DNA of 64,000 nucleotides from Syntrophales bacterium. GTDB taxonomy: Bacteria; Desulfobacterota; Syntrophia; Syntrophales; PHBD01. Shown one piece after another: positions 15,724-43,753 of this stretch (the stretch's first letter is position 1; the number at the start of each line of letters is the position of its first letter). Below the pieces are notes generated by a model that was given only the letters and a program-made list of their open reading frames with translations, was not told the origin of the DNA and searched no databases. The stretch lies in the NCBI GenBank assembly GCA_963668175.1, contig OY764159.1, positions 4,000,001 to 4,064,000 on the forward strand. Reading direction: 5' to 3'. The position numbers and the translations under genes were made by a program.

Positions 15724-16142
15724 TCATCAACCTCAGACGACCGCTGCCGGCCGGTTAAACCCTTCGTGCCGACTGTTAAAAAAGCGGCCCCGGAGATGAC
15801 GTGCGCCATCCAAGAATCAAATCCGGGGAGATACCCGATCCTGCGGTCGGCTTTTACAACACTCTGCCAAAAGATGAGATTTTTTTATAACATGAAGGCA
15901 AGATAAAGGCAATCGCCGATCTAGGACGGTTTTTGCCCTGATCACCCAAGGAAACACCGCGAATCAGAGGACTTTTTCTCTCGCCTTTCCATGCCGCCGC
16001 GGCTTCATCTTGACGGAGACGTCCAGGCAAATTATAGTGAGACGATAAGATTCTTTTTCAGTCATTGATCTGGAAAACGACGAACCGCATTACACAATAG
16101 TCTTGTCAAAGGTCCATGCCGGACCTCCTGCGGGAAGGACAT

Positions 16143-17465
16143 ATGAATTTGAAGACCAACGACACGCATCGCACAACGTCTCTGAGAAGATTCTTGCCGC
16201 TTATTTTATGCTTTGCCGCGGGCCTGTGTGTGCTCATGGAACCGGGCAAGTGCTGGCCCCTGGACGCCAAAGAAATCATCGTCATTGCCAACCGGAACGT
16301 TCCGGACAGCAAAGCCCTCGCCTTCTACTACATGACCCGTCGCGGCATCCCCGCCGAAAACCTTCTTGTCCTTGCTCTGACGGACGAAGAGCATTGCTCC
16401 CGGGAAGAATACAATCAAGAGGCCGTCATTCCCGTGCGCAGGTTTCTCCAGGCAAAAGACCCCGAAAACCGGAGATTTCGCTGCATCGTCACCATGCACG
16501 GCGTTCCGCTCGTCGTGAACGGTTCCGGCCTGAACGTCAAGGATACAGCGAAAATTGCCGCCCTGAGGGATAGGATTAAGAATATACGGTCGGAACTGGC
16601 GAAGCAGTCCTTGAGCGAAAAAGAGAAGGATAAGGCCTATAAAGAAAAGATCGAGCCCCTGGAGCGGCAAGTCACAGCCGTCAGCAAAGCGGACAGCAGC
16701 GCCTCGTTCGATTCGGAGATAGCACTGGTTCGTGAGGCCGACTATCCCCTTGCCGGTTGGGTTCCCAATCCTTACTATCTGGGCTACCGGGGAAAATCGA
16801 TTAAGAACATGCCGTCCAAGGCCTTTATGATCGCGCGCCTGGACGGCCCCTCGAAACAGATCGTCACCCGGATCATCGACGACAGTCTTGCCGCCGAAGC
16901 CGGGGGATTGCGCGGCACAGCCTATTTCGACGCCCGCTGGCCCGACCCGGGGAAGAAGCAGTTGACCGGATATGCCTTCTACGACCGCTCCCTTCATTTG
17001 GCGGCGAAGCAGATCAGGGATAACGCCGTCATGCCCGTCGTGTTGGATGAAAAGGAACGGCTTTTTCAGCCGGGTGAGGCGCCCAATGCAGCCCTCTACT
17101 GCGGTTGGTACAGCCTAGCGAAATATGTCGATGCCTTCACCTGGGTGCCTGGTGCCGTTGGGTACCATATAGCGAGCGAGGAATGCGAGACGCTGAGAAA
17201 ACCCGGAAGCCGGGTATGGTGCAAGGTCATGCTCGAAAAGGGCGTCGCCGCCACGATCGGTCCCGTCAGCGAACCCTATGTCCAGGCTTTCCCGGTACCC
17301 GAAGTTTTTTTCACGTTCCTGATCAGCGGCCGCCTGACCCTGGCGGAATGTTACGCCCTCAGCAACCCCTTTCTGTCCTGGAAGATGGTCCTCATCGGCG
17401 ACCCGCTGTACCGGCCCTTCAAATACCGGGTGAACGCCGAGATGCCCGGACCGCACCGCCCATGA
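16143..17465 (+). CDS. TIGR03790-like exported protein
   Basis: Signal peptide, then LAFYYMTRRGIP, FDSEIA, ARLDG, YCGWY, GPVSEPY and SWKMVLIGDPLYRPF, which I recognise as characteristic of this family. Confidence 0.75.
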   Translation: MNLKTNDTHRTTSLRRFLPLILCFAAGLCVLMEPGKCWPLDAKEIIVIANRNVPDSKALAFYYMTRRGIPAENLLVLALTDEEHCSREEYNQEAVIPVRRFLQAKDPENRRFRCIVTMHGVPLVVNGSGLNVKDTAKIAALRDRIKNIRSELAKQSLSEKEKDKAYKEKIEPLERQVTAVSKADSSASFDSEIALVREADYPLAGWVPNPYYLGYRGKSIKNMPSKAFMIARLDGPSKQIVTRIIDDSLAAEAGGLRGTAYFDARWPDPGKKQLTGYAFYDRSLHLAAKQIRDNAVMPVVLDEKERLFQPGEAPNAALYCGWYSLAKYVDAFTWVPGAVGYHIASEECETLRKPGSRVWCKVMLEKGVAATIGPVSEPYVQAFPVPEVFFTFLISGRLTLAECYALSNPFLSWKMVLIGDPLYRPFKYRVNAEMPGPHRP

Positions 17466-17576: not shown

Positions 17577-18206
17577 CTAACGGAAGCAGGTCGGAATATC
17601 GTCCAGCGGCAAGAAGGCACAGGCCGTATAACGGCCGTCATGGCTTAAGCTCATGTCAAAGGGCGCACGATCCCCTCGAATCAGGACCCGGGGGACAGAA
17701 GCATATCCTGCGATGCCGATATCGTTCCCAGGCAACCCCAGATGACGGGACAGGAAAGCGATCCCGGCTTCTCTTACCAGAGCCGATTCGTCGGCGTTTG
17801 CATCGTTCCACCGGCAGACATCGGAAAGGATCGCATTGAGATCATCGTCCGAACCAGTGCAGGCCAGGCCATGCACATAATCGCTGTCTGAAAAGATACG
17901 AACATGAACGGCACCGACAGGCGTTTCCACCCTCCCGCGGACCGCAGTATCCCCATCGCTGCACCTCAATGTTACTTCGTAGCTGCGCGGTATCGAACAG
18001 ACTGGCGGCGCCAGTTTCGAGATCGCTTTGTATGCCGATTCCTTGGCTGCCCAGAGGGACCATAGAGCCCGGTCCGCCTCGGCGGAGTCAAGGATCATAC
18101 GCTGTTCAGCGGGTGTAAAGACGCGATTGACGAAGCGCCGATCCCTGCTCTTCCCCCTGTTTTCGGGATCGGTCAAATCCACCACATCGTTGCCGACGAA
18201 AGGCAA
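17577..18206 (-). CDS. 4'-phosphopantetheinyl transferase
   Basis: VGNDVVD, WAAKESAYK, SLSHDG motifs. Likely TTG start at 18206 after GGAGGAGG. Confidence 0.88.
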   Translation of the reverse strand: MPFVGNDVVDLTDPENRGKSRDRRFVNRVFTPAEQRMILDSAEADRALWSLWAAKESAYKAISKLAPPVCSIPRSYEVTLRCSDGDTAVRGRVETPVGAVHVRIFSDSDYVHGLACTGSDDDLNAILSDVCRWNDANADESALVREAGIAFLSRHLGLPGNDIGIAGYASVPRVLIRGDRAPFDMSLSHDGRYTACAFLPLDDIPTCFR

Positions 18207-18942
18207 AATAGGCCTCCTCCATGCGCGCCAGTTGCCGGATGATCTGTGCGGCGTAATGCCTCTGAGCGCGAAGCCCCGATTTCTCCGGCCGTTCCAGGTC
18301 CAACGTCTCGACATATACGGTGAAACGTTCGTCTCTCCGGGGAATCGTCCCCCAGGTTTCCTGGCCGTCGCCGCGGAGATAGACACACAGAACGCGGCAG
18401 TCTCCGCACGATTCCAGGAACCGGCCGGCGCCATAGGAAACGTTGTCGACGTCCACGCGACCGGTTCGCGAGCGGCCGCCCTCGGGAAATATCAGGAGGC
18501 TTTGTTTCTCCCCCAGAAGATACCGGCAGCGCGCCATCACGTCCTTCATCTCTTCGCTGTCGCCGCCCCGGTGAACGGGAACGCACTTGGCGAGATAACA
18601 GAGAGCGGTCAGGATAAAGCTTTTCTGGAAGTTGTCCCGTTCGGGCAGATTCCAGGGCAGGCACCGAAAATCGAACAAGTGCCGCTTCAGAGAGAACATA
18701 GCGTAGATGATAATGGCCGAATCCACCATGGTCAAATGATTGGCGCAAATCAGCCAGGGGCCGTCGTGGCCAGCCGTTTTGACGCGGCATTCCTCCCGGA
18801 TGCGGCGCAAATCCCTGATGCGGTAACCCCTCAGCCTGAGAAAGGCGAAATAGGCAGGGGCCAGAAGAAAGACGAACATCCCGCCCAGGAAGTACTGCCA
18901 CTTTAGGCTTGTCTTGAAGGAAATCTTCCTCATGACGCTCAA
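18106..18942 (-). CDS. Lysophospholipid/glycerolipid acyltransferase (PlsC family)
   Basis: N-terminal TM segment, NHLTMVD (H-x4-D), VPVHRG, IFPEGGRS motifs. Confidence 0.88.
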   Translation of the reverse strand: MSVMRKISFKTSLKWQYFLGGMFVFLLAPAYFAFLRLRGYRIRDLRRIREECRVKTAGHDGPWLICANHLTMVDSAIIIYAMFSLKRHLFDFRCLPWNLPERDNFQKSFILTALCYLAKCVPVHRGGDSEEMKDVMARCRYLLGEKQSLLIFPEGGRSRTGRVDVDNVSYGAGRFLESCGDCRVLCVYLRGDGQETWGTIPRRDERFTVYVETLDLERPEKSGLRAQRHYAAQIIRQLARMEEAYFAFRRQRCGGFDRSRKQGEEQGSALRQSRLYTR

Positions 18943-19187
18943 TGCAGCTTCTTCTTAACCAGGGCAATGGCATCGCCGATGGTCCGGATCTTATCGGCCT
19001 CGTCGTCGTCGATCGTTACGCCGAAGACGTCCTCGCAGCGGATGATGACATCCACGAGCCTGGCCGAATTGACCTTCAGGTCCTTGAGGATGTGGGTCTC
19101 CGCGGTCGCCTTGTCCAGAAGGGCGACATCCTTCGTGTAGTTCTTCAAAATTCCCGTGATTTCCGTAAAAATCTGCTGTTCATCCAT
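18939..19187 (-). CDS. Acyl carrier protein
   Basis: 82 aa acidic protein, DLKVNSARLVDVI...EDVFGVTIDDDEADKIRTIGD, with Ser at the pantetheinylation position. Confidence 0.9.
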   Translation of the reverse strand: MDEQQIFTEITGILKNYTKDVALLDKATAETHILKDLKVNSARLVDVIIRCEDVFGVTIDDDEADKIRTIGDAIALVKKKLH

Positions 19188-19205
19188 AACTTATGATCCT
19201 CCTTG

Positions 19206-20483
19206 CTATTCCTTCCATTTTTTAAATATGAGACAACTGTTCACGTCGCCAAAACCGAAGCCGGCCTTGGCGATGACGTTTAATTCGGGATAATCCAGGC
19301 ATGTCCTGGGAATCCGGTCCGTATAGGCCTCGATGTCCGGGTGGATGTCTTCGCAGTTCACCGACGGGTGAAGAAAACCCTTATAGAGCTGCAGGACAAC
19401 GGCGACGCACTCGATGGCGCCGGTCGCACCGAGGCAGTGCCCAATGAGCGACTTCGTCGCATTGATATAGGGAAATCTCTCCGGTCCCCGACCCAGGGCC
19501 TCCGACCAGTTTTTCACTTCGATGGGATCGGCATAGGTTGCCGTAAGGTGGCCGTTGATCGCATCGATGGCCTCCGGTTCGATACCCGCCTCTTGAACGG
19601 CGTTTCTGATGCAGCGTCCGACGCCCTCGGGATTCGGCGCCGTCATGGACCCTCCTTGCCGGTGCCCTCCGCAGTTGACTGCGCCGCTGAGAATCTCGGC
19701 ATATATCCGTGCCCCGCGGGCCAAAGCCGTCTCCAGCTCTTCCAGGACCAGGACAGCCCCGCCGGCACCCGGCACGAAGCCGCAGGCGCTGGCGCTCATC
19801 GGTCGCGACGCCGCCTCCGGATGTTCGTTGAACTTGCGGCAAATGACGCGCATGGCATCGAAACCGGACCAGATATAAGGTGACGCACCTTCCGATCCGC
19901 CGGCCAGCATCCTTTTAGCCAGTCCCATTCGTATCCGCAGGAAGGCGTCGATGATCGCCTCGTTACCCGTGCTGCATGCGGCCGAATTGGACGTAACCTG
20001 GTTGCCCAGGGCCAGTAAACCCGCGATGCGGGCACTGGTCCCGCTGTTCATCACCTGTTCGACGATCCGGCTCCCCAGGCGGCGGACTTTTCCCTCGTTG
20101 ACCATGGGCACGACGGACTTGGCGATCGTATCCATTCCGCCTATGCCGGAGCCGATAATCGCCCCGGTGTCCCAATCAACCCTGTCGTCGTCGGCTTCCG
20201 GCACTTCAAACCCTGCATCCGTCCAGGCATCGACGGCCGACACGGAGGCGTAGCCGATATTGTCGTTGATCGACATCAGTTTCTCGTGATCGAAATAGCG
20301 TTTCCGGATTGCATCGAAATCCTGCGGTACGCCGCCTACCTGACAGGCAAAGCTCAAATCCCTGAGTTCAGGGAGAAAGCGGATGCCCGACCGGCCTTCC
20401 CGCAACGCCGCTTCAAAGGCTTCCAGGCCGTGGCCATTCGGCGCGGCCACTCCCATACCCGTTATCACAACCCTATTTTTCAT
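19206..20483 (-). CDS. Beta-ketoacyl-ACP synthase (FabF/FabB-type)
   Basis: RVVITGMG; catalytic Cys (SAACSTG), His (NGHLT), His (KSLIGHCLGA); GFGFG. ATG start at 20483. Confidence 0.93.
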   Translation of the reverse strand: MKNRVVITGMGVAAPNGHGLEAFEAALREGRSGIRFLPELRDLSFACQVGGVPQDFDAIRKRYFDHEKLMSINDNIGYASVSAVDAWTDAGFEVPEADDDRVDWDTGAIIGSGIGGMDTIAKSVVPMVNEGKVRRLGSRIVEQVMNSGTSARIAGLLALGNQVTSNSAACSTGNEAIIDAFLRIRMGLAKRMLAGGSEGASPYIWSGFDAMRVICRKFNEHPEAASRPMSASACGFVPGAGGAVLVLEELETALARGARIYAEILSGAVNCGGHRQGGSMTAPNPEGVGRCIRNAVQEAGIEPEAIDAINGHLTATYADPIEVKNWSEALGRGPERFPYINATKSLIGHCLGATGAIECVAVVLQLYKGFLHPSVNCEDIHPDIEAYTDRIPRTCLDYPELNVIAKAGFGFGDVNSCLIFKKWKE

Positions 20484-20952
20484 CGAGAACAACCCCCATA
20501 CCGGCCAGCACGGCGCTGCACACGGCTTCTCCGTTTTCCTTTTCCATGCCGACCCTGACTCTGATTGCATTGTTGCGGAAATAGACCTTCTCGCCGCGTA
20601 TTACCACGCGCTCGCCCGGTTCGACCATCCCGGTGAACTCGACACCGTCCGCAAAGGTAAATAGCGTGACCATGCTATCTGTCTTCCCGGGAGCCATCTT
20701 GCCCTGCACAATGCCAAGATAGATACCGAAGGCCACAACACCCGTCTGGGCCATCGTTTCCACGAGAATGACCCCCGGCGTCACGGGACGGCCCGGAAAA
20801 TGGCCCCGGTAAAAATATTCGTCCTCGTGAAAGCGATAGGAACCGACGATATGGTTCTCGTCAATCTCCAGGATATCGTCGATGAAGCGAAACGGCGCCT
20901 GCTGGGGAACCGCCGCCAGAATCCGTTTCTGCAAAAGGGGATCAACCTCCAT
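20473..20952 (-). CDS. FabZ-like 3-hydroxyacyl-ACP dehydratase
   Basis: PQQAPFRFID and GHFPGRPVTPGVILVETMAQ (His/Glu dyad). Confidence 0.88.
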   Translation of the reverse strand: MEVDPLLQKRILAAVPQQAPFRFIDDILEIDENHIVGSYRFHEDEYFYRGHFPGRPVTPGVILVETMAQTGVVAFGIYLGIVQGKMAPGKTDSMVTLFTFADGVEFTGMVEPGERVVIRGEKVYFRNNAIRVRVGMEKENGEAVCSAVLAGMGVVLDEK

Positions 20953-21673
20953 AGAGCCCTCCATTGACGTGGATGACGCTGCCCGTGATGTAGGACCCTT
21001 TGGAGGCCAGAAAAGCAACAACCTCTGCCACCTCCGAAGCCCGTCCTATCCTGGCGAGCGGTATTTTTTCCAGAATCCGCTCCTTGATCTCGTCCGGCAA
21101 CCCGGCCGTCATTTCCGTATCGATAAAACCCGGCGCCACGGAGTTGACCAGGATATTACGTCCCTTCATCTCCTGGGCCAAAGACTTCGAGAAGGCGTCA
21201 AGGGCCGCTTTTTCCATGGTATAGGGAATCTGGCCGCCGTTCCCCGTGTGTCCTACCACGCTGGAGATATTAACGATCCGGCCGCTGTCCTGGCGGAGCA
21301 TAAAGAGCCTGATGACCCTCTTGGTCAGGTACCAGACGCCTCGCATAACCGATCTCTGTTCGTCGAACTGCTCCATCTTCATGCTGTTGATGTCGGCGTT
21401 GATCGACATCCCGGCGTTGTTGACGAGCACATCCACACGCCCGGCCTTGTCCCTGATCTCGCCGATCATGGCATCAACCTCTTCCGGCCGGGAAAGATCC
21501 GCCCGCACCAGAAAACCGTCGCCTATATCCGCCAACACGGCGGCCGCATCCCGTTCGCTGCTGCGGTAATGGATGCCCAGCCGGAATCCCTGTTCGGCAA
21601 GGGCATAGCAGCAGGCGGCACCGATATTACGGCCGCCGCCCGTCACCACAGCCACTTTTTTTTCATTCGTCAT
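20942..21673 (-). CDS. fabG: 3-oxoacyl-ACP reductase (FabG-like SDR)
   Basis: VTGGGRNIG, NNAG, NISS, YTMEK (Y-x3-K), VAPGFIDTEMT motifs. Confidence 0.88.
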   Translation of the reverse strand: MTNEKKVAVVTGGGRNIGAACCYALAEQGFRLGIHYRSSERDAAAVLADIGDGFLVRADLSRPEEVDAMIGEIRDKAGRVDVLVNNAGMSINADINSMKMEQFDEQRSVMRGVWYLTKRVIRLFMLRQDSGRIVNISSVVGHTGNGGQIPYTMEKAALDAFSKSLAQEMKGRNILVNSVAPGFIDTEMTAGLPDEIKERILEKIPLARIGRASEVAEVVAFLASKGSYITGSVIHVNGGLYGG

Positions 21674-22262
21674 TTTTCACCATGATTCCGCCGGTGGAAT
21701 ATCCGGACCGCATGGGATAATCCCGGTAGGCGATGTCCTTGAATATCCCCGTTCGTGCTTCTTGAACGGTCATGACCAGTTCGTCGTCGACGAAGACCCG
21801 GCCATCCCCGATGGCAATGCTCGCCCCCGACTCCTTCAAATGCGAATAGCGTCTCACATCCACTTCATAGCGGACGCACCGGTTATAGGGCCGGATCTGT
21901 CCGTTGAACGACACCTCCCCGCAGCCGAGGGCCCTTCCCGACCCCAGGGCACCGCTCCAGGTGCAGAAGTAGCCGAGGAGCTGCCATATGGCATCCACAC
22001 AGAGGCATCCCGGCTGAACGGGATCGCCCAGCATATGGCACTGGAAATACCAGGCATCCAGCCGGACGTCCTGCTCCGCAACGACGGACCCGCGCCGGCC
22101 TTCGCTTTTTATGGAGAGGATGCGGTCCACCATCAGAAACGGCGGTGCCGGCAGCCTGCCGTCGAAATCCGCGGGAGGGTCCTCGATCAATCTTCCATAG
22201 GCAAAGGCCAGCAATTCCTCGAAACGGAATTCATGGCGCTGTCGATACTCGTTATAGGTCAT
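21663..22262 (-). CDS. fabA: FabA-like 3-hydroxyacyl-ACP dehydratase/isomerase
   Basis: LPAPPFLMVDRI and WYFQCHMLGDPVQPGCLCVDAIWQLLG (His/Asp dyad typical of FabA), GRALG. Confidence 0.85.
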   Translation of the reverse strand: MTYNEYRQRHEFRFEELLAFAYGRLIEDPPADFDGRLPAPPFLMVDRILSIKSEGRRGSVVAEQDVRLDAWYFQCHMLGDPVQPGCLCVDAIWQLLGYFCTWSGALGSGRALGCGEVSFNGQIRPYNRCVRYEVDVRRYSHLKESGASIAIGDGRVFVDDELVMTVQEARTGIFKDIAYRDYPMRSGYSTGGIMVKNDE

Positions 22263-22305
22263 CCCGTCATCTTCTTCGATTCAAGTACCGTAAAAACGCT
22301 TCCAT

Positions 22306-23292
22306 CTATGCTTCAACGGACAGGAGCATATGGCCCCAGGTCAATCCCGCCCCAACCAGGGCGATTGCCGCCTGGTCGCCGGGACGGAGTTCATCCCAGT
22401 GCTGGCTCAAGACGGAAGGCCCTCCGGCGCAGCCCTGGTTTCCGTAAAATTCGACATTATGCCAGTGGTCCCCTTCGGCGACGCCGCACCGTTCGCAGAC
22501 GGTCTGCAACATTCCCAGATTGGCCTGATGGCCGATGAATATCAGGCAGGCACCGTTGTTCCTTGCTTCGGATTGCAGAGTCCGCAGGGAATCGGTTGTC
22601 CGCCGGATCGCAAAACCCTGAACGGCGCTTCCATCCTGCCAGAAATACCCGTTCCGCGGCACCCTGGCCTTGTCCCACGACGACGGTTTGGAGCCGCATT
22701 CGCAGTGGGTGACGATTTTCCCGGCCGGGACCGACGCCGACACGACGCAGGCGGCACTGCCATCGCCAAAGAGGACGGCGTTGGCCCGGTCGGAATAATC
22801 GATCGAACGGGTCACATTGTCCGGCTGGACAAGGAGGATGAACGGCGGCAAGGCCTCCGGCCTCATCCTGGACAGGAAATTCATCTGGACGCCGAAAGTG
22901 GAGCAGGCCGAATTCAGATCGAAGCAGGGGGCTTCGATGCCCAGTTCGGAGGCAATCGTGGCGGCCTCGGCGGGCGTTAGTGTATCGGGGATGGAACTGC
23001 CGGATATGACGAGGCCGATATCGCAAGACGAAAGGCCGGCACGCTCAAGGGCCATCCGGGCGGCGGCGGCGCCCGTCTTGGCGTTGCATGTCATACTGGC
23101 CTCATAGGCCTCCCTCGGATCCCTGTTCTTCGTTTGTTTGATATAATCGAGGGGAAGGACGGAATGACGGGTGTGAATCCCGACCCGTTCCAGAATCCAT
23201 TCTTCGCTCGTACCGATGTCCAGCTCTTCCAGGAACCGGTTTGTGATGATGTTGTCGGGATGGTAATGGCCGATGCCGTGCAGATATAACAT
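22306..23292 (-). CDS. Ketoacyl-ACP synthase III (FabH-like)
   Basis: TSEEWILERVGI, Cys (NSACS), LFGDGSAA, His (GHQAN), Asn (YGN), GAGLTWG. Confidence 0.9.
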   Translation of the reverse strand: MLYLHGIGHYHPDNIITNRFLEELDIGTSEEWILERVGIHTRHSVLPLDYIKQTKNRDPREAYEASMTCNAKTGAAAARMALERAGLSSCDIGLVISGSSIPDTLTPAEAATIASELGIEAPCFDLNSACSTFGVQMNFLSRMRPEALPPFILLVQPDNVTRSIDYSDRANAVLFGDGSAACVVSASVPAGKIVTHCECGSKPSSWDKARVPRNGYFWQDGSAVQGFAIRRTTDSLRTLQSEARNNGACLIFIGHQANLGMLQTVCERCGVAEGDHWHNVEFYGNQGCAGGPSVLSQHWDELRPGDQAAIALVGAGLTWGHMLLSVEA

Positions 23293-23296
23293 ACGC

Positions 23297-24496
23297 TTAT
23301 AAGATCTCCCGTCCGATAATCATGTTTTGAACCTCCCTCACACCCTCATAAATATCGATGATATGCGCATCCCGAACCAGTTTCGAAATCTCGTACTCGG
23401 CCGTAAAGCCGTACCCCCCATGCAGGTGCAGACCCTCGTTGGCGCAGTAAAGGGCGGCCTCCGCCGCCGTATTTTTAGCCAGCGATGCATAGAGCCCCCG
23501 GTCCTCCGCCTTTTCCTGAACCTTGAAGGCCGCCTTCATCAGGGCGAGTTCGGCCAGTTCGACCTTTTTCCACAGGGATACGATCGTCTCCCTGGCGACG
23601 GGCAGGTCGGCGATCCTCTGGCCGAATTGCTGGCGCATCTTCGTGTACTCGACCGTCACATCGAGGGCGCGCCTCGCAAGGCCGACGCCGATGGCCGCCA
23701 CCATCGGCCTGGCGTAATCCAGGACGTCGACGATGTATTTGAAGCCCTGCCTTCGATCGCCGATGATCTGATCGTCTTCCAGGACGACATCCTCGAAGCT
23801 GACGCTCGCCGTGTTCGACATGCGCTGGCCCAGTTTATCCTCAGGCTTGCCGATGACGACCCTGCCGCCTCCCGCAAGGACAACTTCGCGCCCCCTGCCA
23901 GTCTCCACACCCGCATCGCCGGGCAGCAGCGGGGGAACCGGAACGACGACACAGGCCATGAAGTTCCCCGTCGGCTTGCCGACTTTGCAGAAAACGGTGA
24001 ACTGGGAGGCGAAGGACGCATTCGTGATGAAGCATTTGGACCCGTTCAGGACATATTTGCCGTCATTCCGTTTGCCGATGAAGGTCGTCATCGCCGAATT
24101 GTCCGATCCCGCATTGGGTTCCGTGAGACAGAAGGATGCCAGCAGCGGTTTCTCCGTGAACGGCCTGAGAAAGGCCTCTTTCTGGGACTGTGTACCCTGC
24201 TGGGCTATGGCCGCATTGGCCAGGTCGTTGCACATGGCGGAGGTGGAAATTCCCGTATCGCCGTAAGAAAGCTCCCGGATGATCAATGCCGACGATACGA
24301 CATCGACCTCGTATCCCTTGACGGATTCGGGAATGCATAGGTTTAGAATCCCGAGTTCCCATATCTTCGTAATGATATCCCAGGGAAATCGATGCTCCCC
24401 ATCCCATACCAGGACGTTGGGCGTGATTTCGCTCCGGACGAACCTGACGACGGTGTCGATATACATTTGCTGCTGCTCTGTTAGCGTGAAATCCAC
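23297..24496 (-). CDS. Acyl-CoA (possibly acyl-ACP) dehydrogenase
   Basis: CLTEPNAGSD, LNGSKCFITN, KLGQR, RQQFG, HGGYG, IYEG motifs. Confidence 0.93.
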   Translation of the reverse strand: MDFTLTEQQQMYIDTVVRFVRSEITPNVLVWDGEHRFPWDIITKIWELGILNLCIPESVKGYEVDVVSSALIIRELSYGDTGISTSAMCNDLANAAIAQQGTQSQKEAFLRPFTEKPLLASFCLTEPNAGSDNSAMTTFIGKRNDGKYVLNGSKCFITNASFASQFTVFCKVGKPTGNFMACVVVPVPPLLPGDAGVETGRGREVVLAGGGRVVIGKPEDKLGQRMSNTASVSFEDVVLEDDQIIGDRRQGFKYIVDVLDYARPMVAAIGVGLARRALDVTVEYTKMRQQFGQRIADLPVARETIVSLWKKVELAELALMKAAFKVQEKAEDRGLYASLAKNTAAEAALYCANEGLHLHGGYGFTAEYEISKLVRDAHIIDIYEGVREVQNMIIGREIL

Positions 24497-24549
24497 GATC
24501 GATCCTTATAATAATGTTCGGCAAGTGCCGTTTAACACATCCGGCAATC

Positions 24550-25497
24550 TCAGTTGGAACCGGCAAATATCCTCATCGCCGCCGACAGGGTCGTCACGGA
24601 GAGGCAGTCGACCTGCATGGTTTTGAAGAATTCCCGAAGGGGCCGGCCCGGTCCTATTTCATAGATCGCCGCCGAATGTTTCGAGAGTGCCGCCATGTTG
24701 CTCCTCCACTGCACAGGATTGCTGATCTGGAAGACGAGATCCCGGATCACTTCATCGACCAGATCGCTGTGGAACCCCCCCGTATAATTGGACGTTACAC
24801 GGGTTGTCCTTCGCATATCGAGCGCCGAGGCCATTTCCTGAAGCGCATCTTCGAACGGCCTTTCGATTCTTCTCATGAACCGGCTGTGAAACGGCGCGCT
24901 CACATTGAGAGGTACAAAGTGAAAATTCTGATCGTCCGGCATCGTCCCCATGACCCGGAGGGCGGCAGCCGACATGGAATCGGCCGACCCGCTGATCACA
25001 ACCTGCTGAATGGAATTGACGTTGGCGACATCGACGGGAAGATCGTCGAGGGCCTTTTGAATGGCTCCGGCGTCGAGACGGTCGGAGATGACTGCCGACA
25101 TGCCGCCGATCCCTATGGGCGCCGCATCCTGCATCAATCTTCCCCGAAGGTGGACGATCTTCAGCGCATCGGCGAAAGGCAGGGCCCCGGCGGCAACCAG
25201 CGCGGTGAATTCGCCGAGGCTGTGACCGCCGAAAATATCCGGTTCGAATCCGAAAAGACTCTTTAATCCCCGGAGCATGGCGATCTCCGTCGTCAGAATG
25301 CACGGCTGCGTGTATTCCGTAAGGTCGAGCCTCGCATCTTCGCCGAAGCAAAGTTCCCCGACATTCCATCCCAGGGCATCGGATGCCTCTGCATATGTAT
25401 CGCGGCTTGCGACAATACGATCGTAAAAATCCTTACCCATGCCGGGTCTCTGTGACCCCTGGCCGGGAAACACGGCGGCTACTTGACGTTCTTTCAT
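24550..25497 (-). CDS. fabD: Malonyl-CoA:ACP transacylase
   Basis: FPGQGSQ, TQP, GHSLGE, VSAPFHS, EIGPG motifs. Confidence 0.95.
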   Translation of the reverse strand: MKERQVAAVFPGQGSQRPGMGKDFYDRIVASRDTYAEASDALGWNVGELCFGEDARLDLTEYTQPCILTTEIAMLRGLKSLFGFEPDIFGGHSLGEFTALVAAGALPFADALKIVHLRGRLMQDAAPIGIGGMSAVISDRLDAGAIQKALDDLPVDVANVNSIQQVVISGSADSMSAAALRVMGTMPDDQNFHFVPLNVSAPFHSRFMRRIERPFEDALQEMASALDMRRTTRVTSNYTGGFHSDLVDEVIRDLVFQISNPVQWRSNMAALSKHSAAIYEIGPGRPLREFFKTMQVDCLSVTTLSAAMRIFAGSN

Positions 25498-25574
25498 CGG
25501 TATCCCCTCCTGCCCGTTGTTTCAATCCATCCGTTATGCCGTTCGCGCATCGCGCTGCATGACGACGACGCAGA

Positions 25575-25590
25575 AGCACTATCCATGCCA
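25575..25590 (-). promoter_or_regulatory. Putative sigma54 (-24/-12) promoter of the lipid cluster
   Basis: Minus strand TGGCATGGATAGTGCT has GG-N10-GC spacing with TGGCA, about 80 nt upstream of fabD. Confidence 0.65.
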
Positions 25591-25962: not shown

Positions 25963-27645
25963 ATGAGGATTCGATCGATGCTTCATGAACCTACTCACCT
26001 GGAAATGAAACAGGAAATTGAAGATTTCAAAGAAGCCCTGGCGGCGCAGAAACAGATTGAAGAAGCCCTCAGGGAAAGCAAGCAGATCTACAAAATGATC
26101 TCCGAAAAATCGTTTGCCGGCATCTATGTCGTGCAGGACGGTAAATTCCGTGCCGTCAACCCCAGTGCCGCCTTCTATGCCGGATACACGATAGGGGAGT
26201 TAACCGGAATGAAATCGGACTGCATCGTCCATCCCGACGACCGTCTCCAAGTTAAGCGCGATGCCCGCGCCATGCTGCGGGGCGAACGGGTATCGCCCTA
26301 TGAATTCCGGATCATCACGAAAGACGGTCAAATACGCTGGATCATGGAAACGGTGACGTCCATATTCTTCGAAGGGCGGCCGGCCATCCTCGGCAATTCG
26401 ATGAACATCACCGATCGCAAGCAGATCGAAGAACGATTGAAGGAGTCCGAAAACCTTTACCGGGCCATCTTCGAGACGACACCCGCGGCGACCATCATCG
26501 TCGAAGAAGATACGACCATCTCCCTCGTCAATTCGCAATTCGAAAAGCTTTCCGGCTACCGCAAAGAGGAGTGGGAAGGTAAGAAGTCGTGGACCGAGTT
26601 CGCAGCACCCAAAGATGTCGAACGCATGATGCATTATCATCACCGGCGGCGCACGAGCCCCGGCCTGGTACCCCGGAATTACGAATTCAGCCTCATCGAC
26701 AGTCTCGGCCGCACGCGGGAAGTGACACTCATCGTCGATATGATTCCGGGGACGAAGAAGAGCGTCGCCTCGCTGCTCGATATCACGGAACGCAAGAGGT
26801 CCGAGGAAAAGATGCTGGAGAGCGAGAACCTGTACCGGACCATTTTCGAAACCACGGGCACGGCAACCATCATCGTGGAAGAAGACATGACGGTATCCCT
26901 CGTCAATACGGAGTTCGAGAAGATGTCCGGGTCACCCAAATCCTGCTGGGAGGGAAAGAGAAGCTGGACGGAGTTCGCATCGAAAAAGGACGTTACCAGA
27001 ATGAAGAAGTACCACTTCGCCCGGAGGGTGGACCCCAATCTGGCGCCCCGAAACTATGAATTCGGCTTCATCGACCGGCAGAAAAACCTCAAGGACACCA
27101 TCATCACCATTTCAATGATCCCCGGAACCAAGAAGAGCGTGGCTTCCTTTGTCGATATCACCGAACGGAAACGGGCCGAAAAGGAATTGAAAAAAAGGGA
27201 GGCGGAACTGCAGATCAATTCCGCCAACCTGCAGGAGGTCAATACGGCCCTCCGGATTCTTCTGAAGCAAAGGGAAGAGGACAAGAACGAATTGGAAAGC
27301 AAGGTCCTGTCGAACGTCAAGGAGCTGGTTCTGCCCTATATCGATAAGATCAAGAAGCTTCGCATGGACAAGAGGGGACTGGCCTATATCGAAAGCCTCG
27401 AATCGAACCTGAAGGACATCATCTCGCCGTTTTCCTACAAGCTGTCCTCCCAATATCTCAATCTGACGCCGAAGGAACTGCAAGTGGCCAACCTGATCCG
27501 GGAGGGAAAAACGAGCAAGGAGATTGCCGAAATGACCAATGTCTCCCGCAGCGCCATCGATATCCACCGTTACCGCATCCGGAACAAGCTGGGACTGAAC
27601 AACAAGAAAGCGAATCTCCGTTCATACCTGTCATCTTTCACATAA
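25963..27645 (+). CDS. LuxR-family regulator with three PAS/PAC domains
   Basis: Three PAS-PAC units ending NITDR, DITER, DITER, a coiled coil, then LTPKELQVANLIREGKTSKEIA...HRYRIRNKLG. Confidence 0.92.
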   Translation: MRIRSMLHEPTHLEMKQEIEDFKEALAAQKQIEEALRESKQIYKMISEKSFAGIYVVQDGKFRAVNPSAAFYAGYTIGELTGMKSDCIVHPDDRLQVKRDARAMLRGERVSPYEFRIITKDGQIRWIMETVTSIFFEGRPAILGNSMNITDRKQIEERLKESENLYRAIFETTPAATIIVEEDTTISLVNSQFEKLSGYRKEEWEGKKSWTEFAAPKDVERMMHYHHRRRTSPGLVPRNYEFSLIDSLGRTREVTLIVDMIPGTKKSVASLLDITERKRSEEKMLESENLYRTIFETTGTATIIVEEDMTVSLVNTEFEKMSGSPKSCWEGKRSWTEFASKKDVTRMKKYHFARRVDPNLAPRNYEFGFIDRQKNLKDTIITISMIPGTKKSVASFVDITERKRAEKELKKREAELQINSANLQEVNTALRILLKQREEDKNELESKVLSNVKELVLPYIDKIKKLRMDKRGLAYIESLESNLKDIISPFSYKLSSQYLNLTPKELQVANLIREGKTSKEIAEMTNVSRSAIDIHRYRIRNKLGLNNKKANLRSYLSSFT

Positions 27646-29051: not shown

Positions 29052-29214
29052 TTGTTGCGGCCGCACTGGAAAAGAAACCGGGGGGAGTCCCATGCGGCAG
29101 ACGGATAAGGCAGACAAGGAAAGGAGGTGAAGACGTAGTAAGCGGGCAGCAGATTCCTATACGTGAGATCTTATCGACCAGCATTTCGTGAAGTCATCAA
29201 AAGGAGGGAACGTT

Positions 29215-30540: not shown

Positions 30541-30546
30541 TTCATT

Positions 30547-31896: not shown

Positions 31897-31979
31897 GGAG
31901 GCCTTTCGCAGGGAAACCGGTTTACCTGCGAAGGGCGGCACCATAGCACCAAGTGCGGCGAAAGCGAAGAAATAAGTCC

Positions 31980-32004
31980 CCGGCCCGGATGATGTCCGGG
32001 CCGG
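31980..32004. repeat. Perfect 10-bp inverted repeat (intergenic hairpin)
   Basis: CCGGCCCGGA-TGATG-TCCGGGCCGG, no U-tract. Confidence 0.55.
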
Positions 32005-32104
32005 TACGATGATCCATAACAGCCTTGCGTGTATTATAGCGGTACGTGAGGTCGGCTTGGCGTATCGTCTGTAATAAGATTAACGAAAAGGAAAGGATGG
32101 AGAA

Positions 32105-33247: not shown

Positions 33248-33470
33248 GATCGGAGACAAACCCGACAGGAACCAGGCTCCCGTCGGGAGGCGTTAAGACA
33301 CAGAATATTTATTCAGCAAAACGTGTTTCATCGCAGCACCAGGAAGGGTGAATTCCTCTTCACCCGGCGCTCCCTGCCTCTTTCCTATGAAACCGCGGAA
33401 GAAGGAAGCAGAGAGTGGGGACAAATGTTCATTCACATCCCTATCTATCTTAATAAGGAGGTACGACAAC

Positions 33471-35117: not shown

Positions 35118-35276
35118 CAAGCATCTTCACGGTTAAACGGAAAAACAGAGGCACCGGGCGGACGGCTGCGGCGAAAGGGCCGCGGCTCTTCGCCCGGACA
35201 TTTCGATCATAGATTGAACCGCACCTGCCAGATGCGCAGCATACAAACGATTATACGGCAATGCAGGAGGTAAAAA

Positions 35277-37607: not shown

Positions 37608-37912
37608 CGTCTCTCTCCTTATCCTGAATCATTTCCCGTACGGGGAAGTCTTCCATATCCCGGTCAATTAGTCAACTCTAGCCTTACACTCGTGTGTAAT
37701 CATTTTCCGCAATACCCCATTGACGGTCAGGCAGCATTTCCTTATACTGAAAACTGATGCGGATTCTGCATTGCTTACGCAGGATATGCATGAAAAGAAA
37801 AGGAGGAATCGTATTCCCCGTCGGACGCGCAAGTTCCGGTCCGGATTAGATCGTATGCGTCAGGTTGGCATACGCGTACTCACGATCCATCAGCTATCGA
37901 GGGAGGGCACCC

Positions 37913-38869
37913 ATGATCAGAACCAGAATAACGGAATTGTTCGGCCTGCGTTACCCCATCATCCAGGCGGGCATGGTCTGGACCAGCGGCTGGCGGCTGG
38001 CGGCCGCCGTAGCGGAAGCCGGGGGACTGGGCCTCATCGGAGCCGGCTCCATGACGCCCGAACTGCTCCGGGAACACATCCATAAGATCGGGCAGGCAGG
38101 AACAAAAGGGGTATGGGGGGTGAACCTGCCCATCTTCTTTCAGTATGCCGACGACATGGCGAGGGTCATCACGGAAGAAGGCGTGAAGATCGTCTTCACT
38201 TCGGGCGGAAGTCCCAAGAAATATACGGGACGGTTCAAAGACGCAGGCATCAAGGTCGTGCATGTCACTTCAACGCCGGAACTCGCGTCGAAATGCGAAG
38301 AGGCGGGCGTGGACGCCGTCGTTGTAGAAGGTTTCGAGGCAGGTGGACATAACGGGCGGGACGAACTGACAACCCTCGTCCTGGTTCCCCAGACCAGGGA
38401 CGCCGTAAAAATTCCGGTGATTGCCGCCGGAGGCATCTACGACGGCCGCGGCGTGGCCGCCGTCCTGGCCATGGGGGCGGACGGAGCCCAGATCGGGAGC
38501 CGGTTTGCGGCAACGGTCGAATCAAGCTGTCATCCGAAATTCAAGGAGGCCATGGTCAAGGCCTCGCCGACCGACACGTTTCTCATCCTGAAAAAAATGA
38601 TCCCCGCCCGGGTCATCAAGAACGAGTGGTATGAGCGGATAGCGGAGGCGGAAGGCCGGGGCGCGTCGCAGGAAGAGTTGCTGCAGTTGATCGGCGAAAA
38701 GCGAACCCGGCTGGGTATGTTTGAAGGCGAGCTTCACGAGGGAGAACTGCAGATAGGACAAATCGCCGGTGCGATCCACGACGTGAGACCTACGGGAGAA
38801 CTCGTTCACGAAATCGGCAAGGAGTGCGAGCAGGTACTGCAAAATCTCCACGGAAGGATCGTGGCCTGA
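37913..38869 (+). CDS. FabK/nitronate monooxygenase family flavoprotein
   Basis: PIIQAGM, AGGLG, EGFEAGGH, IAAGGIYDGRG, GSRF, GQIAG motifs. ATG at 37913 after GGAGG. Confidence 0.9.
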   Translation: MIRTRITELFGLRYPIIQAGMVWTSGWRLAAAVAEAGGLGLIGAGSMTPELLREHIHKIGQAGTKGVWGVNLPIFFQYADDMARVITEEGVKIVFTSGGSPKKYTGRFKDAGIKVVHVTSTPELASKCEEAGVDAVVVEGFEAGGHNGRDELTTLVLVPQTRDAVKIPVIAAGGIYDGRGVAAVLAMGADGAQIGSRFAATVESSCHPKFKEAMVKASPTDTFLILKKMIPARVIKNEWYERIAEAEGRGASQEELLQLIGEKRTRLGMFEGELHEGELQIGQIAGAIHDVRPTGELVHEIGKECEQVLQNLHGRIVA

Positions 38870-40817: not shown

Positions 40818-42341
40818 ATGGAAACCTTTACTCTCGCGGCCATCAGCCTGACGATAGCCATTTCCCTGACCATCAACAAGAAAAGGGACGGCCTGCAACT
40901 CTCTTTTGCCGCGCTCTGTTTGGCTGTTTTTTTTCACAAAAGCGGGGTTTTCTTCCATGACTTGCTGAAAAACCCTTTCTGGAAAATGATCGCCGATATG
41001 GGTCTCGTCGCGACGGCACCGCTCGCAATCCGTTTTACATCGGCCCTGTCGAACGGACTGAGTTTCCTCACCCCCAAATGGACCGTATCCGCGACCTTCA
41101 TGGCCGTTCTGCTGTCCGCGGCCACCTTCACGCCCCTTGACCGCTGGCTTTATATGGACACGGTTCTCCGGACATTTTCATTTGGTATGCTGGGTCTCTG
41201 TTATCTCGCACTGCTTCATTATACAAAATCCAAAGTGGCCGGTATCGAAAGATGGAGGTTTATTTATCTGTCGACAGCCTGTACGGTCTCAGCCGTCTTG
41301 AGCCTTCTCGATTTGTTCCATTACTTCGGTTATAATTTTCCCCGTTTGTCGGATATCGTCATTGCCGGTCTCCTCTATTTTGTATTCATGTTCATCACCC
41401 ATCACCGTCTTATAGAAATTCAGGAGTTGATGGCCCGAGCCCTCTTTATCGCCATTCTAACGATGTTTGCGGCGATTGCCATCTATTCCGTTATCGGACT
41501 GTTCGGCATGGGCGTCACCCTGCCGTTCACCCCGGTTCTGCTGGCTTCCTTTATCATCGTCATTTCCATCAGCCCTTTCCGGGAAATTCTGGAGAAACTG
41601 TTCGGCAAACTTTACCCGGACAGCAAAGACCTGTTCACGTCCATGTTTACCTTTGACGAAAAAATCGAGCGCGAAAAATCCGTGATGCTGGAGGAAATGG
41701 CTCCCGTCCTTGCTCACGAGATCCGCAACCCCCTAGGATCCATCAAAGGTGCGGCGCAGTATCTGCGCTCGGAGGCAACGACCGAGGAAAACGAGAAACT
41801 CCTGGACGTCATCATTGAAGAGGTCAACAGATTGAACAGTGTTGTTTCGCAGTTCCTCGACTTTGCGAAACCTTATACGTTGACGCTGAAGCCGACGGAT
41901 ATCAACCAAATCATCGAAAAGGCCGTTTCGATCATCAAGGCCAATGACATATCCGGAAAAATAACCATAGAGAGAGAACTTCGGCCTCACCTGCCGCCGA
42001 TCATGGCAGACCAGGAACAGATCATCCAGGTGATCCTGAATATCGCCTTCAACGGCATTGAAGCCATGCCGGAAGGCGGAACGCTCACATTCAGAACGAC
42101 CAAGATCGCAAGCGATGTAGGCGACGCCATAGGAATCTCCATCCGCGACACGGGCGCAGGCATCAAGAAGGAGGAGATGATCAACATTTTCAAGCCGTTT
42201 TTTACGACCAAGGAACGCGGCGTAGGGCTTGGATTGGCCATCTGCCGGAAAATCATCAAGACCCATGGCGGCCATATCCGCGCCAAGTCCATCGTCGGAC
42301 AGGGAAGCATCTTTTATATCAGATTGGGCACGGCCTATTGA
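40818..42341 (+). CDS. Multi-pass membrane sensor histidine kinase
   Basis: Multiple N-terminal TM helices; H-box LAHEIRNPL, N-box, DTGAG, PFFTTK, GLGL. Confidence 0.93.
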   Translation: METFTLAAISLTIAISLTINKKRDGLQLSFAALCLAVFFHKSGVFFHDLLKNPFWKMIADMGLVATAPLAIRFTSALSNGLSFLTPKWTVSATFMAVLLSAATFTPLDRWLYMDTVLRTFSFGMLGLCYLALLHYTKSKVAGIERWRFIYLSTACTVSAVLSLLDLFHYFGYNFPRLSDIVIAGLLYFVFMFITHHRLIEIQELMARALFIAILTMFAAIAIYSVIGLFGMGVTLPFTPVLLASFIIVISISPFREILEKLFGKLYPDSKDLFTSMFTFDEKIEREKSVMLEEMAPVLAHEIRNPLGSIKGAAQYLRSEATTEENEKLLDVIIEEVNRLNSVVSQFLDFAKPYTLTLKPTDINQIIEKAVSIIKANDISGKITIERELRPHLPPIMADQEQIIQVILNIAFNGIEAMPEGGTLTFRTTKIASDVGDAIGISIRDTGAGIKKEEMINIFKPFFTTKERGVGLGLAICRKIIKTHGGHIRAKSIVGQGSIFYIRLGTAY

Positions 42342-42385
42342 GACGCGTCCTTGACACGACAAACATTCCATAATAGATCAAACCT

Positions 42386-43753
42386 ATGAAAAATATCCTC
42401 GTAGTTGACGATGAATTAAATATGCGCCTCGTTCTGAAGGCCATGCTGAAGAAGGAGGGATACGACGTCGTCCTGGCATCCGACGGCGCCGAGGCTCTGG
42501 ACATTCTCAAAAAGGAGGAGATAAGCATTGTGGTGTCCGATCTGAAGATGCCCAGGCTCGACGGAATGGAACTCCTGGAGAGGGTATCCCAATCGTGGCC
42601 GTCCATACCGGTCATCATCATCACGGCCCACGGCACGATCGCTACTGCGGTCGATGCCTTGAAAAAAGGCGCTTTCGATTACATCACAAAACCCTTCGAG
42701 CAGGACGAACTGAAGAACATCATCTTTAAAGCCATCAAGACCAAGACCTTAAACGAAGGCGAAGCCCTCTTCCGGCCGGACGATATCGAACGTTACGGCA
42801 TTATCGGCAACAGCAAAGTCATGCTGGAGACATACGATGTCATTAAAAAGGTCGCCCCGACGACAACGACGGTGATGATTACGGGAGAGACGGGAACGGG
42901 AAAGGAACTTATCGCCAATGCCGTTCATGTGAACAGTCCCCGGCGTCAGAACCCCTTCATCAAGATCAACTGTGCCGCTATCCCGGAAAATCTCATGGAG
43001 AGCGAACTCTTCGGCTTCGAGAAAGGGGCTTTCACCGGCGCCGTCGTCGGCAAACCGGGGAAATTCGAACTGGCCCATAAGGGAACCCTGTTTCTGGACG
43101 AAGTGGGAGAATTATCCAAGGAGATGCAGGTCAAAATCCTGACCGTGATCCAGGACCATCAATTCGAGCGGGTCGGCGGAATCCGCACCATCAAAGTCGA
43201 TGTGAGGCTGATTACCGCGACCAATCGCAATCTGCGCCAGGACGTGAAGAACGGAACCTTCCGGGAAGATCTTTTCTACAGGCTCAATGTTTTCCCCATT
43301 CACGTTCCCCCGCTCAGAGAGCGAAGAGAGGATATCCCGCTTCTCGTCGACTATTTTCTGGACAAATTCAACAAGAAGCTGAACCGCTCCGTCAAATCGA
43401 TCGAACCGGCCGTCATGGACATCCTGGAACAGTACGATTGGCCAGGAAATATCCGGGAGTTGGAGAATTTCACGGAAAGACTCGTGCTTATGGCCCAGGG
43501 AGAAACTATCGGGCCCCAGGATATCCCCGGTGAATGGAAAACAGCCGCGGAATCGTCGATCCTGGTTAAATCGGACGACCGGAAGACAGCCCTGAAAGAC
43601 TGGATCAAAAACCAGACGGAAGAAATAGAAAAACAGATGATCACAAAAGTCCTCGACGAATGCGGAGACAATGTGACCAGGGCGGCCAAGCAACTGGGCA
43701 TGAGTAGAAAGGGACTCCAACTCAAGATGATTAAGTATGACCTCCGGAAATAG
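42386..43753 (+). CDS. Sigma54-dependent response regulator (NtrC/AtoC family)
   Basis: Canonical REC (VVDDE, SDLKMP, TKPF), GETGTGKE, GAFTGA and an HTH; paired with the upstream kinase. Confidence 0.95.
   Translation: MKNILVVDDELNMRLVLKAMLKKEGYDVVLASDGAEALDILKKEEISIVVSDLKMPRLDGMELLERVSQSWPSIPVIIITAHGTIATAVDALKKGAFDYITKPFEQDELKNIIFKAIKTKTLNEGEALFRPDDIERYGIIGNSKVMLETYDVIKKVAPTTTTVMITGETGTGKELIANAVHVNSPRRQNPFIKINCAAIPENLMESELFGFEKGAFTGAVVGKPGKFELAHKGTLFLDEVGELSKEMQVKILTVIQDHQFERVGGIRTIKVDVRLITATNRNLRQDVKNGTFREDLFYRLNVFPIHVPPLRERREDIPLLVDYFLDKFNKKLNRSVKSIEPAVMDILEQYDWPGNIRELENFTERLVLMAQGETIGPQDIPGEWKTAAESSILVKSDDRKTALKDWIKNQTEEIEKQMITKVLDECGDNVTRAAKQLGMSRKGLQLKMIKYDLRK

Follow-up and report, generated by a model that had tools for sequence, protein, structure and literature searches.

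The window analysed here, a stretch of 64,000 nucleotides from a Syntrophales bacterium (contig OY764159.1, positions 4,000,001 to 4,064,000), contains an operon for type II fatty-acid synthesis (FAS) that is probably the indispensable core FAS of its lineage. Ten minus-strand genes run in one direction between positions 17577 and 25497, the latter being the start of fabD, and Pfam and NCBIfam identify their products, in order from fabD, as FabD, a flavoprotein of the acyl-CoA dehydrogenase (ACAD) family, a 3-ketoacyl-acyl carrier protein synthase III (KAS III), a FabA-like protein, FabG, a FabZ-like protein, an elongating ketosynthase (KS), an acyl carrier protein (ACP), a PlsC-like acyltransferase and a phosphopantetheinyl transferase (PPTase). 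We also favor, if only slightly, the fuller reading in which the operon is the ancestral, principal type II FAS of the order Syntrophales, with sigma-54 control and an ACAD at the reductase step. The original prediction, made from the sequence of the window, had taken the cluster for an accessory second pathway devoted to a special acyl chain. That claim is not supported: the operon holds the genome's only FabA and FabZ, it is conserved across the order, and it encodes the sole FabD and FabH of many relatives. What is new here is that a type II FAS stands under sigma-54 control, has carrier genes of its own and includes a reductase candidate without precedent; no description of the operon, or of an ACAD-type enoyl-ACP reductase, was found in the open-access literature.

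Gene content and distribution of the operon

No FabZ above cut-off was found in the whole genome (G000), and the top matches to FabZ and FabA are the two operon genes, joined by a weak FabZ match in a locus of radical S-adenosylmethionine (SAM) and KS genes. An E. coli FabA query returned the operon gene as its sole match and an E. coli FabZ query returned the same three places. The lpxD and lpxA genes (G000:C1:4106862-4108735) lie 117 nt apart, and the usual intervening fabZ is not there. Across the order, FabZ above cut-off is missing from 26 of 26 genomes, and the pair of FabZ-like and FabA-like genes is present in 24 of these 26. The FabA-like 3-hydroxyacyl-ACP dehydratase/isomerase (21663..22262, 199 aa; PF07977) passes the NF003509 model at 200 bits (cut-off 124), does not reach that of TIGR01749 (160 bits, cut-off 238), is 40% identical to E. 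coli FabA, and keeps the His and Asp of the His70 and Asp84 positions in 15 of 15 orthologs. The FabZ-like dehydratase (20473..20952, about 159 aa from ATG 20952, in a frame open to 21021; PF07977) scores 73 bits against TIGR01750 (cut-off 155), still the top FabZ match genome-wide, and its His and Glu are likewise kept in 15 of 15 orthologs.

The check for a separate housekeeping fab locus, which the original prediction had proposed, gave a divided answer. A canonical fabF (623 bits, above cut-off) and acpP lie beside yceD at 669-670 kb, and canonical-scoring fabH, fabG and fabD are found at 907-912 kb with a polyhydroxyalkanoate (PHA) synthase and another ACP. Two ACPS-family genes are present in the genome, the operon PPTase and a canonical AcpS at 1618 kb, and further PlsC-family genes are present elsewhere; an E. 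coli PlsX query gave no match in the genome at E 1e-4. Thus acpP-fabF and fabH/fabG/fabD/AcpS do exist outside the operon, but the genome's only FabA/FabZ dehydratases are within it. The locus at 907-912 kb (L005, G000:C1:906900-911800) reads fabH, ACP, class I PHA synthase, fabG and fabD, a PHA-linked arrangement that is unusual for 'housekeeping' fab genes. This canonical-looking fabH-ACP-phaC-fabG-fabD set is the optional one. That the operon might be the only FAS II locus, which the prediction had named as evidence against its own reading, is not true of G000, where canonical genes lie elsewhere, but it does describe the lineage, in which many relatives have their sole FabD, FabH and dehydratases in the cluster.

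The distribution of the operon follows the order. A single copy of the ACAD ortholog (67-80% identity) is present in each of 53 of the 61 order genomes; in a phylum sample, with four candidates scored per genome, it was found in all 14 order genomes and in 0 of 387 others. The operon was recovered in 15 of the 16 relatives' regions compared, of which 12 keep the full set of ten genes in unchanged order and three keep nine, and among 98 related loci 34 have all ten genes in order and none is rearranged, the rest being contig-truncated or sub-threshold subsets. Gene order and content, whose conservation the prediction had left to be checked, are therefore kept across Syntrophales. FabD is present in 61 of 61 order genomes, above the curated cut-off in 35 and with none above it in 26. 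A single FabD turned up in 22 of the 61, and 18 of these 22 have it no more than 2.6 kb from the ACAD ortholog. Closed genome G439 carries its cluster at 336-343 kb, and this holds the genome's only FabD (341711-342574), its only full-length FabH match (339433-340386) and its only FabZ/FabA matches (337700-338071 and 338999-339298); the KS genes of this genome are that of the cluster, a canonical FabF 24 kb off, and one more. Such minimal genomes argue for a core function because AcpP and FabF coexist with the operon while the remaining steps are encoded solely in it.

Adjacent genes of the operon either overlap by 4-11 nt or are separated by gaps of 4-53 nt, apart from an overlap of about 100 nt between the acyltransferase and PPTase genes; the 11-nt overlaps join FabA to FabG, FabG to the FabZ-like gene and the latter to the KS, and a 4-nt overlap joins the ACP to the acyltransferase. 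Comparison with orthologs places the probable starts of the FabZ-like, KS and PPTase genes at 20952, 20483 and 18206, each behind a GGAGG-type site. The content, order, single direction and tight spacing of the ten genes, as first described, are confirmed by the domain searches and by the coordinates of the open reading frames (ORFs).

Each protein was aligned with its E. coli K-12 counterpart and 13-16 orthologs, and the catalytic residues of all FAS enzymes and of the ACAD proved intact in every sequence aligned, while every cluster enzyme except FabA falls below the curated NCBIfam equivalog cut-offs. The FabD-like malonyl-CoA:ACP transacylase (24550..25497, 315 aa; PF00698; TIGR00128 238 bits, cut-off 261) keeps the counterparts of E. 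coli S92, R117, H201 and Q11 in the window and 13 of 13 orthologs, and the FabH-like initiating KAS III (22306..23292, 328 aa; PF08545, PF08541; PRK09352 179 bits, cut-off 249) keeps its Cys-His-Asn triad in the window and 15 of 15. The Ser-Tyr-Lys of the 3-oxoacyl-ACP reductase FabG (20942..21673, 243 aa; PF13561; TIGR01830 235 bits, cut-off 298) is kept in 16 of 16 orthologs. The elongating KS (19206..20483, 425 aa from ATG 20483, in a frame open to 20570; PF00109, PF02801) retains Cys-His-His-Lys-Phe in 15 of 15 orthologs and stands between FabB and FabF: it is 34.7% identical to FabF and 36.5% to FabB, and scores below cut-off with both the FabF model (295 bits) and the FabB (KAS I) model NF005935 (259 bits, cut-off 630). 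An E. coli FabB query found the canonical FabF, not the operon KS, as its top match in the genome.

Private carrier system and sigma-54 control

The last three genes of the operon form a carrier system of its own. The private ACP (18939..19187, 82 aa) matches PF00550 at 25 bits and falls below cut-off with all NCBIfam ACP models; its stretch DLKVNSARLVDV reads NSA where E. coli AcpP has DSL, and this is invariant in all 15 sequences (window plus 14 orthologs). The attachment Ser is present, helix II has Arg and Lys at positions that are acidic in AcpP, and mean column identity in the ortholog alignment is 77%. The acyltransferase (18106..18942, 278 aa; PF01553, 1e-12) belongs to the PlsC family of lysophospholipid acyltransferases (LPLAT), has one N-terminal hydrophobic segment, and carries HX4D (NHLTMVD) and FPEGGRSR motifs that are invariant in 16 of 16 sequences; its NCBIfam matches are weak (AGPAT model 29.6 bits, cut-off 103), and an ortholog is present in 12 of the 14 order genomes and 5 of the 387 others of the phylum sample. 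The PPTase (17577..18206; PF01648) comprises about 209 aa when read from TTG 18206, which stands behind GGAGG in a frame open to 18434, and its conserved N-terminus begins VGNDIVDL.

Transcription of the operon very probably depends on sigma-54. The GG-N10-GC box TGGCATGGATAGTGCT at 25590-25575, a -24/-12 element of the form TGGCAT-N5-GTGCT (25575..25590, minus strand), lies 93 nt upstream of the fabD start, and rpoN is present in the genome. When upstream regions were scored against the sigma-54 consensus, 11 of 13 other loci had a box with correctly spaced GG and GC and at least 8 of 12 consensus positions at a distance of 53-105 nt from fabD; by chance, about 0.03 box per locus would be expected in that interval (from 4796 boxes on both strands of 4.57 Mb). 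The operon region showed no sigma-70-like promoters or terminators beyond the chance level, and an inverted-repeat search upstream of the promoter yielded two weak palindromes and nothing more.

The likely cognate regulator is a two-component system about 15 kb from the operon, at 40818-43753 on the plus strand, because orthologs of both of its genes adjoin fabD in other genomes. The probable sensor (40818..42341) is a histidine kinase with HisKA and HATPase_c domains, whose polytopic N-terminal region of about 250 residues is a succession of hydrophobic segments with no large soluble domain; the probable cognate activator (42386..43753) is of the NtrC type, with receiver, AAA+ and HTH_8 domains. 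Among 54 loci that include fabD, of which 21 alone have an upstream flank of at least 3.5 kb, a divergently transcribed ortholog is found no more than 4 kb upstream of fabD in 11 loci for the kinase (45-60% identity) and in 8 for the activator (63-69% identity). With a sigma-54 promoter and a two-component system, it is plausible that the operon is inducible. The divergent neighbor of the operon, a PAS-PAS-LuxR (GerE) regulator (25963..27645, plus strand; Pfam), was set aside as its regulator: a close ortholog (69% identity) at the same place is found in L020 and L043 only, and with its positional ortholog restricted to these two near relatives the link to the operon is weak.

Much of the original description thus stands: the NSA-for-DSL motif is correct and turns out to be invariant across orthologs, the correctly spaced sigma-54 box is confirmed and conserved in relatives, and a self-contained FAS-like operon with a private divergent ACP, PPTase and acyltransferase is supported. 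The private ACP with its own PPTase and acyltransferase is also what one would expect of a specialized pathway, and it weighs against a core role. Under that alternative, an inducible accessory FAS would build a special chain on its own ACP and place it on a particular lipid, while bulk synthesis would proceed through the canonical AcpP, FabF, FabH, FabD and FabG, borrowing the operon's dehydratases. The sigma-54 promoter and its two-component system would suit such a pathway, as would the canonical-scoring acpP-fabF, fabH, fabG, fabD, AcpS and other PlsC-family genes in G000 and the sub-cut-off scores of all cluster enzymes bar FabA. A precedent exists in the amxACP/amxFabZ pair of anammox bacteria, where a dedicated ACP is told apart from the canonical one by its partner enzyme (PMC10139942). 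Two features of the distribution also tell against a core role: canonical AcpP and FabF are kept in 10 of 10 minimal genomes (FabF 606-641 bits), and 8 of 61 order genomes have no ACAD ortholog, three of which (family f9) appear to be without the whole cluster. We nevertheless consider an accessory pathway unlikely, since G000 has no other dehydratase, the lone FabD of 22 of 61 relatives lies inside the cluster in 18, closed G439 has no other FabH or FabD, and the distribution is not patchy but spans the order in single copy. The f9 genomes (G016, G431 and G447) have canonical FabD only, no ACAD ortholog, and many FabK-like genes; in G016 the locus examined lacks the cluster, and no FabZ match was better than 44 bits.

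The ACAD and the enoyl-reduction step

Enoyl-ACP reductase catalyzes the most variable step of bacterial fatty-acid synthesis; it is a drug target, and four families are known. No FabI, FabK, FabL or FabV was found inside the operon with Pfam and NCBIfam. The operon encodes instead an ACAD-family flavoprotein (23297..24496, 399 aa; PF02771, PF02770, PF00441), and it is put forward as the reductase because it is the lone operon gene without a step while enoyl reduction is the lone step without a gene. The catalytic Glu of its IYEG motif aligns with the catalytic-base motif of medium-chain acyl-CoA dehydrogenase (MCAD) and is invariant in 16 of 16 sequences, across which mean column identity is 79%; relative to MCAD, the middle domain has an insert of about 20 aa. 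Among solved structures MCAD comes closest (236 bits), ahead of Bcd (5ol2_C, 204 bits) and CarC (6fah_C, 167 bits) of complexes with electron-transfer flavoprotein (ETF), and the top NCBIfam match is the acryloyl-CoA reductase AcrC (251 bits, below cut-off). At least 1000 database proteins match at E <=1e-100, and among the 120 listed all names are the generic 'acyl-CoA dehydrogenase'; the genome itself has 27 ACAD paralogs.

Classical reductases were then sought in the whole genome and in relatives. G000 has no FabI, as judged by NCBIfam on 23 short-chain dehydrogenases/reductases (SDRs) at E <=1e-62 and by an E. coli FabI query whose best match is 30% identical; the same query was positive in two of three genomes of family f125, which have a FabI at 42% identity. 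No FabV match was obtained in G000 with a search that rang in no control genome. Evidence for the ACAD comes from eight cluster-bearing genomes (G439, G455, G422, G425, G441, G456, G426 and G446), two of them closed, in which no FabK match exceeds 32 bits and no FabI ortholog was found. A selection of twelve further SDRs, drawn from six of these genomes (G426 and G446 contributed none), proved FabG-type or generic; among them FabL scores peaked at 197 bits, against a cut-off of 328. Because these eight genomes bear the cluster and have no FabI, FabK, FabL or FabV matches, the ACAD is the best reductase candidate, and we judge the chance that it is an enoyl-ACP reductase to be about even.

Several observations hold that estimate down. 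The genome has three FabK-like genes (305, 245 and 243 bits; cut-off 453), any of which could be the reductase here; the best of them, an NMO-family flavoprotein within the window (37865..38869, plus strand; PF03060; 305 bits with TIGR03151), lies outside any fab context. FabK-like genes at E <=1e-40, none above cut-off, are found in 50 of 61 order genomes. The absence of FabV matches from the eight FabK-less genomes comes from a search without a positive control, and reductases of the medium-chain dehydrogenase/reductase (MDR) type and other families were outside the search. The two f125 genomes with a true FabI still keep the ACAD, and L136, an operon from outside the order that shares the FabG-to-PPTase core described below, has neither the ACAD nor an extra SDR. 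In a survey of the neighbors of related loci, no ETF or other conserved electron-donor gene was seen to travel with the operon. Finally, to serve as the reductase the enzyme would have to accept ACP rather than CoA thioesters.

Two other roles for the ACAD were weighed. It may be a true dehydrogenase that backtracks in the manner of FabX, converting acyl-ACP to trans-2-enoyl-ACP for isomerization by FabA, or else a desaturase, with an unrecognized enzyme reducing the enoyl intermediate. Oxidation is the normal direction for an ACAD, fabA lies two genes downstream, two f125 genomes keep the ACAD alongside FabI, and Helicobacter pylori FabX is a flavoenzyme dehydrogenase/isomerase within FAS II (PMC8626469). 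In established E. coli biochemistry, however, FabA can produce both the trans-2 and the cis-3 compound straight from the 3-hydroxy one. A dehydrogenase beside FabA would therefore be redundant, and eight genomes would be left without any reductase candidate, which makes this role quite unlikely in our view. Even less probable is a role on CoA thioesters, in which the ACAD would supply the KAS III primer, for example by turning crotonyl-CoA into butyryl-CoA or by saturating an alicyclic enoyl-CoA. The position of its gene between fabD and KAS III agrees with primer supply, as do NCBIfam matches that include acryloyl-CoA reductase and cyclohexane-1-carbonyl-CoA dehydrogenases, and 27 paralogs fit a setting of CoA-ester metabolism; but the problem of the missing reductase would stay, the ACAD is far more conserved than KAS III, and in G456 no KAS III appears to separate the ACAD from its neighbor FabA.

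The ACAD as reductase leads to a broader and rather doubtful proposal: that Syntrophales replaced every classical enoyl-ACP reductase by an ETF-fed ACAD-family flavoprotein, possibly an electron-bifurcating one. Enoyl reduction is strongly exergonic, so an Etf-coupled reductase would recover reduced ferredoxin for energy-starved syntrophs. In Smithella-like loci, a protein with an FMN-reductase domain (487 aa; L105:12104-13567) follows the PPTase on the same strand in 10 of 85 loci, and a FabG-like SDR (L094:12975-13781) does so in 18 of 85; the former could be the electron donor for the ACAD in this subgroup.

Proposed mechanism, related systems and significance

The assignments above can be combined into a model for the operon as core FAS. 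The kinase and NtrC-type activator would drive sigma-54 transcription of a single polycistronic message. FabD would load malonate on the carrier protein and KAS III would prime the chain, after which FabG would reduce the keto group, the FabZ-like and FabA-like enzymes would dehydrate, and the KS would elongate, with FabA and the operon KS also supplying an anaerobic cis-unsaturated branch. The ACAD, run reductively with a low-potential donor such as reduced ETF, would perform enoyl-ACP reduction. The operon PPTase would activate the private ACP, from which AcpS is probably barred by the somewhat basic helix II, and the ACP would pass finished chains to the single-pass membrane acyltransferase and thence onto a glycerolipid acceptor. 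Gene content, intact catalytic residues, synteny across the order, the conserved promoter and the sole copies of dehydratases here and of FabD and FabH in many relatives are demonstrated. The parts of this model that we infer are the reductase role of the ACAD and its electron donor, which activator acts on the operon, which lipid is the acceptor, and how the private ACP and AcpP share the supply of phospholipid and lipid A.

The operon resembles E. coli-type type II FAS with a FabA/FabB branch in its FabD, KAS III, FabG, FabZ- and FabA-type dehydratases, KS and ACP, all with intact residues. It differs in being one sigma-54 operon with an ACAD between fabD and KAS III and no FabI, FabK, FabL or FabV, in having NSA for DSL, in its private PPTase and PlsC-like acyltransferase, and in a KS equidistant from FabB and FabF. 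With Bcd/EtfAB, CarC and AcrC, which are among its closest solved or curated relatives, the operon ACAD shares the ACAD fold. Those enzymes reduce the enoyl group of CoA esters during fermentation, and their genes adjoin etfAB, whereas the operon ACAD has no etf neighbor, a FAS-operon context, and the middle-domain insert.

H. pylori FabX (PMC8626469) offers a likeness as a flavoenzyme of a non-classical family that acts on acyl-ACP within the FAS cycle; it differs as a FabK/NMO-family protein with a 4Fe-4S cluster that both oxidizes and isomerizes, while here an ACAD stands with a FabA to isomerize. The anammox amxACP/amxFabZ system (PMC10139942) and the fab clusters of Desulfotalea and Kuenenia (PMC2649909) also have a dedicated ACP, with partner enzymes encoded next to it, in a genome with a canonical ACP; these clusters include radical SAM and desaturase-like genes, and a complete canonical FAS is present besides, whereas the operon has no such genes and supplies the genome's only dehydratases. 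Nearer relatives occur in other families of Desulfobacterota (L133-L137), where a core of FabG, FabZ-like protein, KS, ACP, acyltransferase and PPTase is kept in the same order at 42-66% identity. None of these has an ACAD; a sigma-54 activator adjoins L133-L135, although at the f62 operons it is unrelated to the activator in the window, and in L133, an f62 operon, an extra 349-aa SDR with a weak FabV-domain match heads the operon. Gene content excludes the aryl polyene, ladderane and dialkylresorcinol types, there being no ammonia lyase with KS/chain-length factor and exporter, no radical SAM with desaturase-like genes, and no DarB-type KS. The operon matches no characterized cluster by gene content, and the statement that it fits no recognized type is borne out.

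Other loci of the genome carry KS genes in different company. The radical SAM locus mentioned above (L002, G000:C1:724000-743000) has four radical SAM genes, three KS, two ACPs, a thioesterase, a PlsC-family acyltransferase and the weak FabZ-like gene, and resembles the Desulfotalea and Kuenenia clusters covered in PMC2649909. L004 (G000:C1:4449000-4469000), with an aromatic amino acid ammonia lyase, KS and KS-like genes, two AMP ligases, an enoyl-CoA hydratase and an ABC-2 exporter, is aryl-polyene-like in appearance, and at L003 (G000:C1:4426000-4442000) a biotin-type cluster (class III and class I/II aminotransferases, a BioD-like AAA_26 protein) is interleaved with KS, ACP, SDR and nitroreductase genes. 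Within the window, a TIGR03790-family protein (16116-17465, plus strand; 305 bits, cut-off 67; no Pfam domain) is convergent with the PPTase end of the operon. RelA/SpoT (10560-12733, minus strand) is spread over two overlapping ORFs that lie in different frames: 11234-12733 has HD_4, RelA_SpoT and TGS, and 10560-11471 has RelA_AH_RIS and ACT. A frameshift, an error of sequencing or a true division of the gene could account for this. A catabolic-looking operon at 29188-36527 (plus strand) encodes two family III CoA-transferases, an ACAD (32105-33235), an AMP-dependent ligase and a thiolase.

If the ACAD is the reductase, it would add a fifth family to the four known, with a different cofactor and electron-donor logic; if it is also fed by ETF, as in the broader proposal above, that class would be distinct in mechanism and unaffected by inhibitors of the FabI type. 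For annotation, a cluster that looks accessory would be the main FAS of Syntrophales, the operon ACAD should not be counted as a beta-oxidation gene, and the fabZ missing from its usual lpx location is truly absent there. Syntrophales are key degraders of fatty acids, aromatics and alkanes in methanogenic systems, and how they keep acyl-chain synthesis apart from degradation is a real physiological question. The operon makes this question testable, through a private ACP, sigma-54 control via a membrane sensor, and what may be a synthesis-side ACAD among 27 paralogs.

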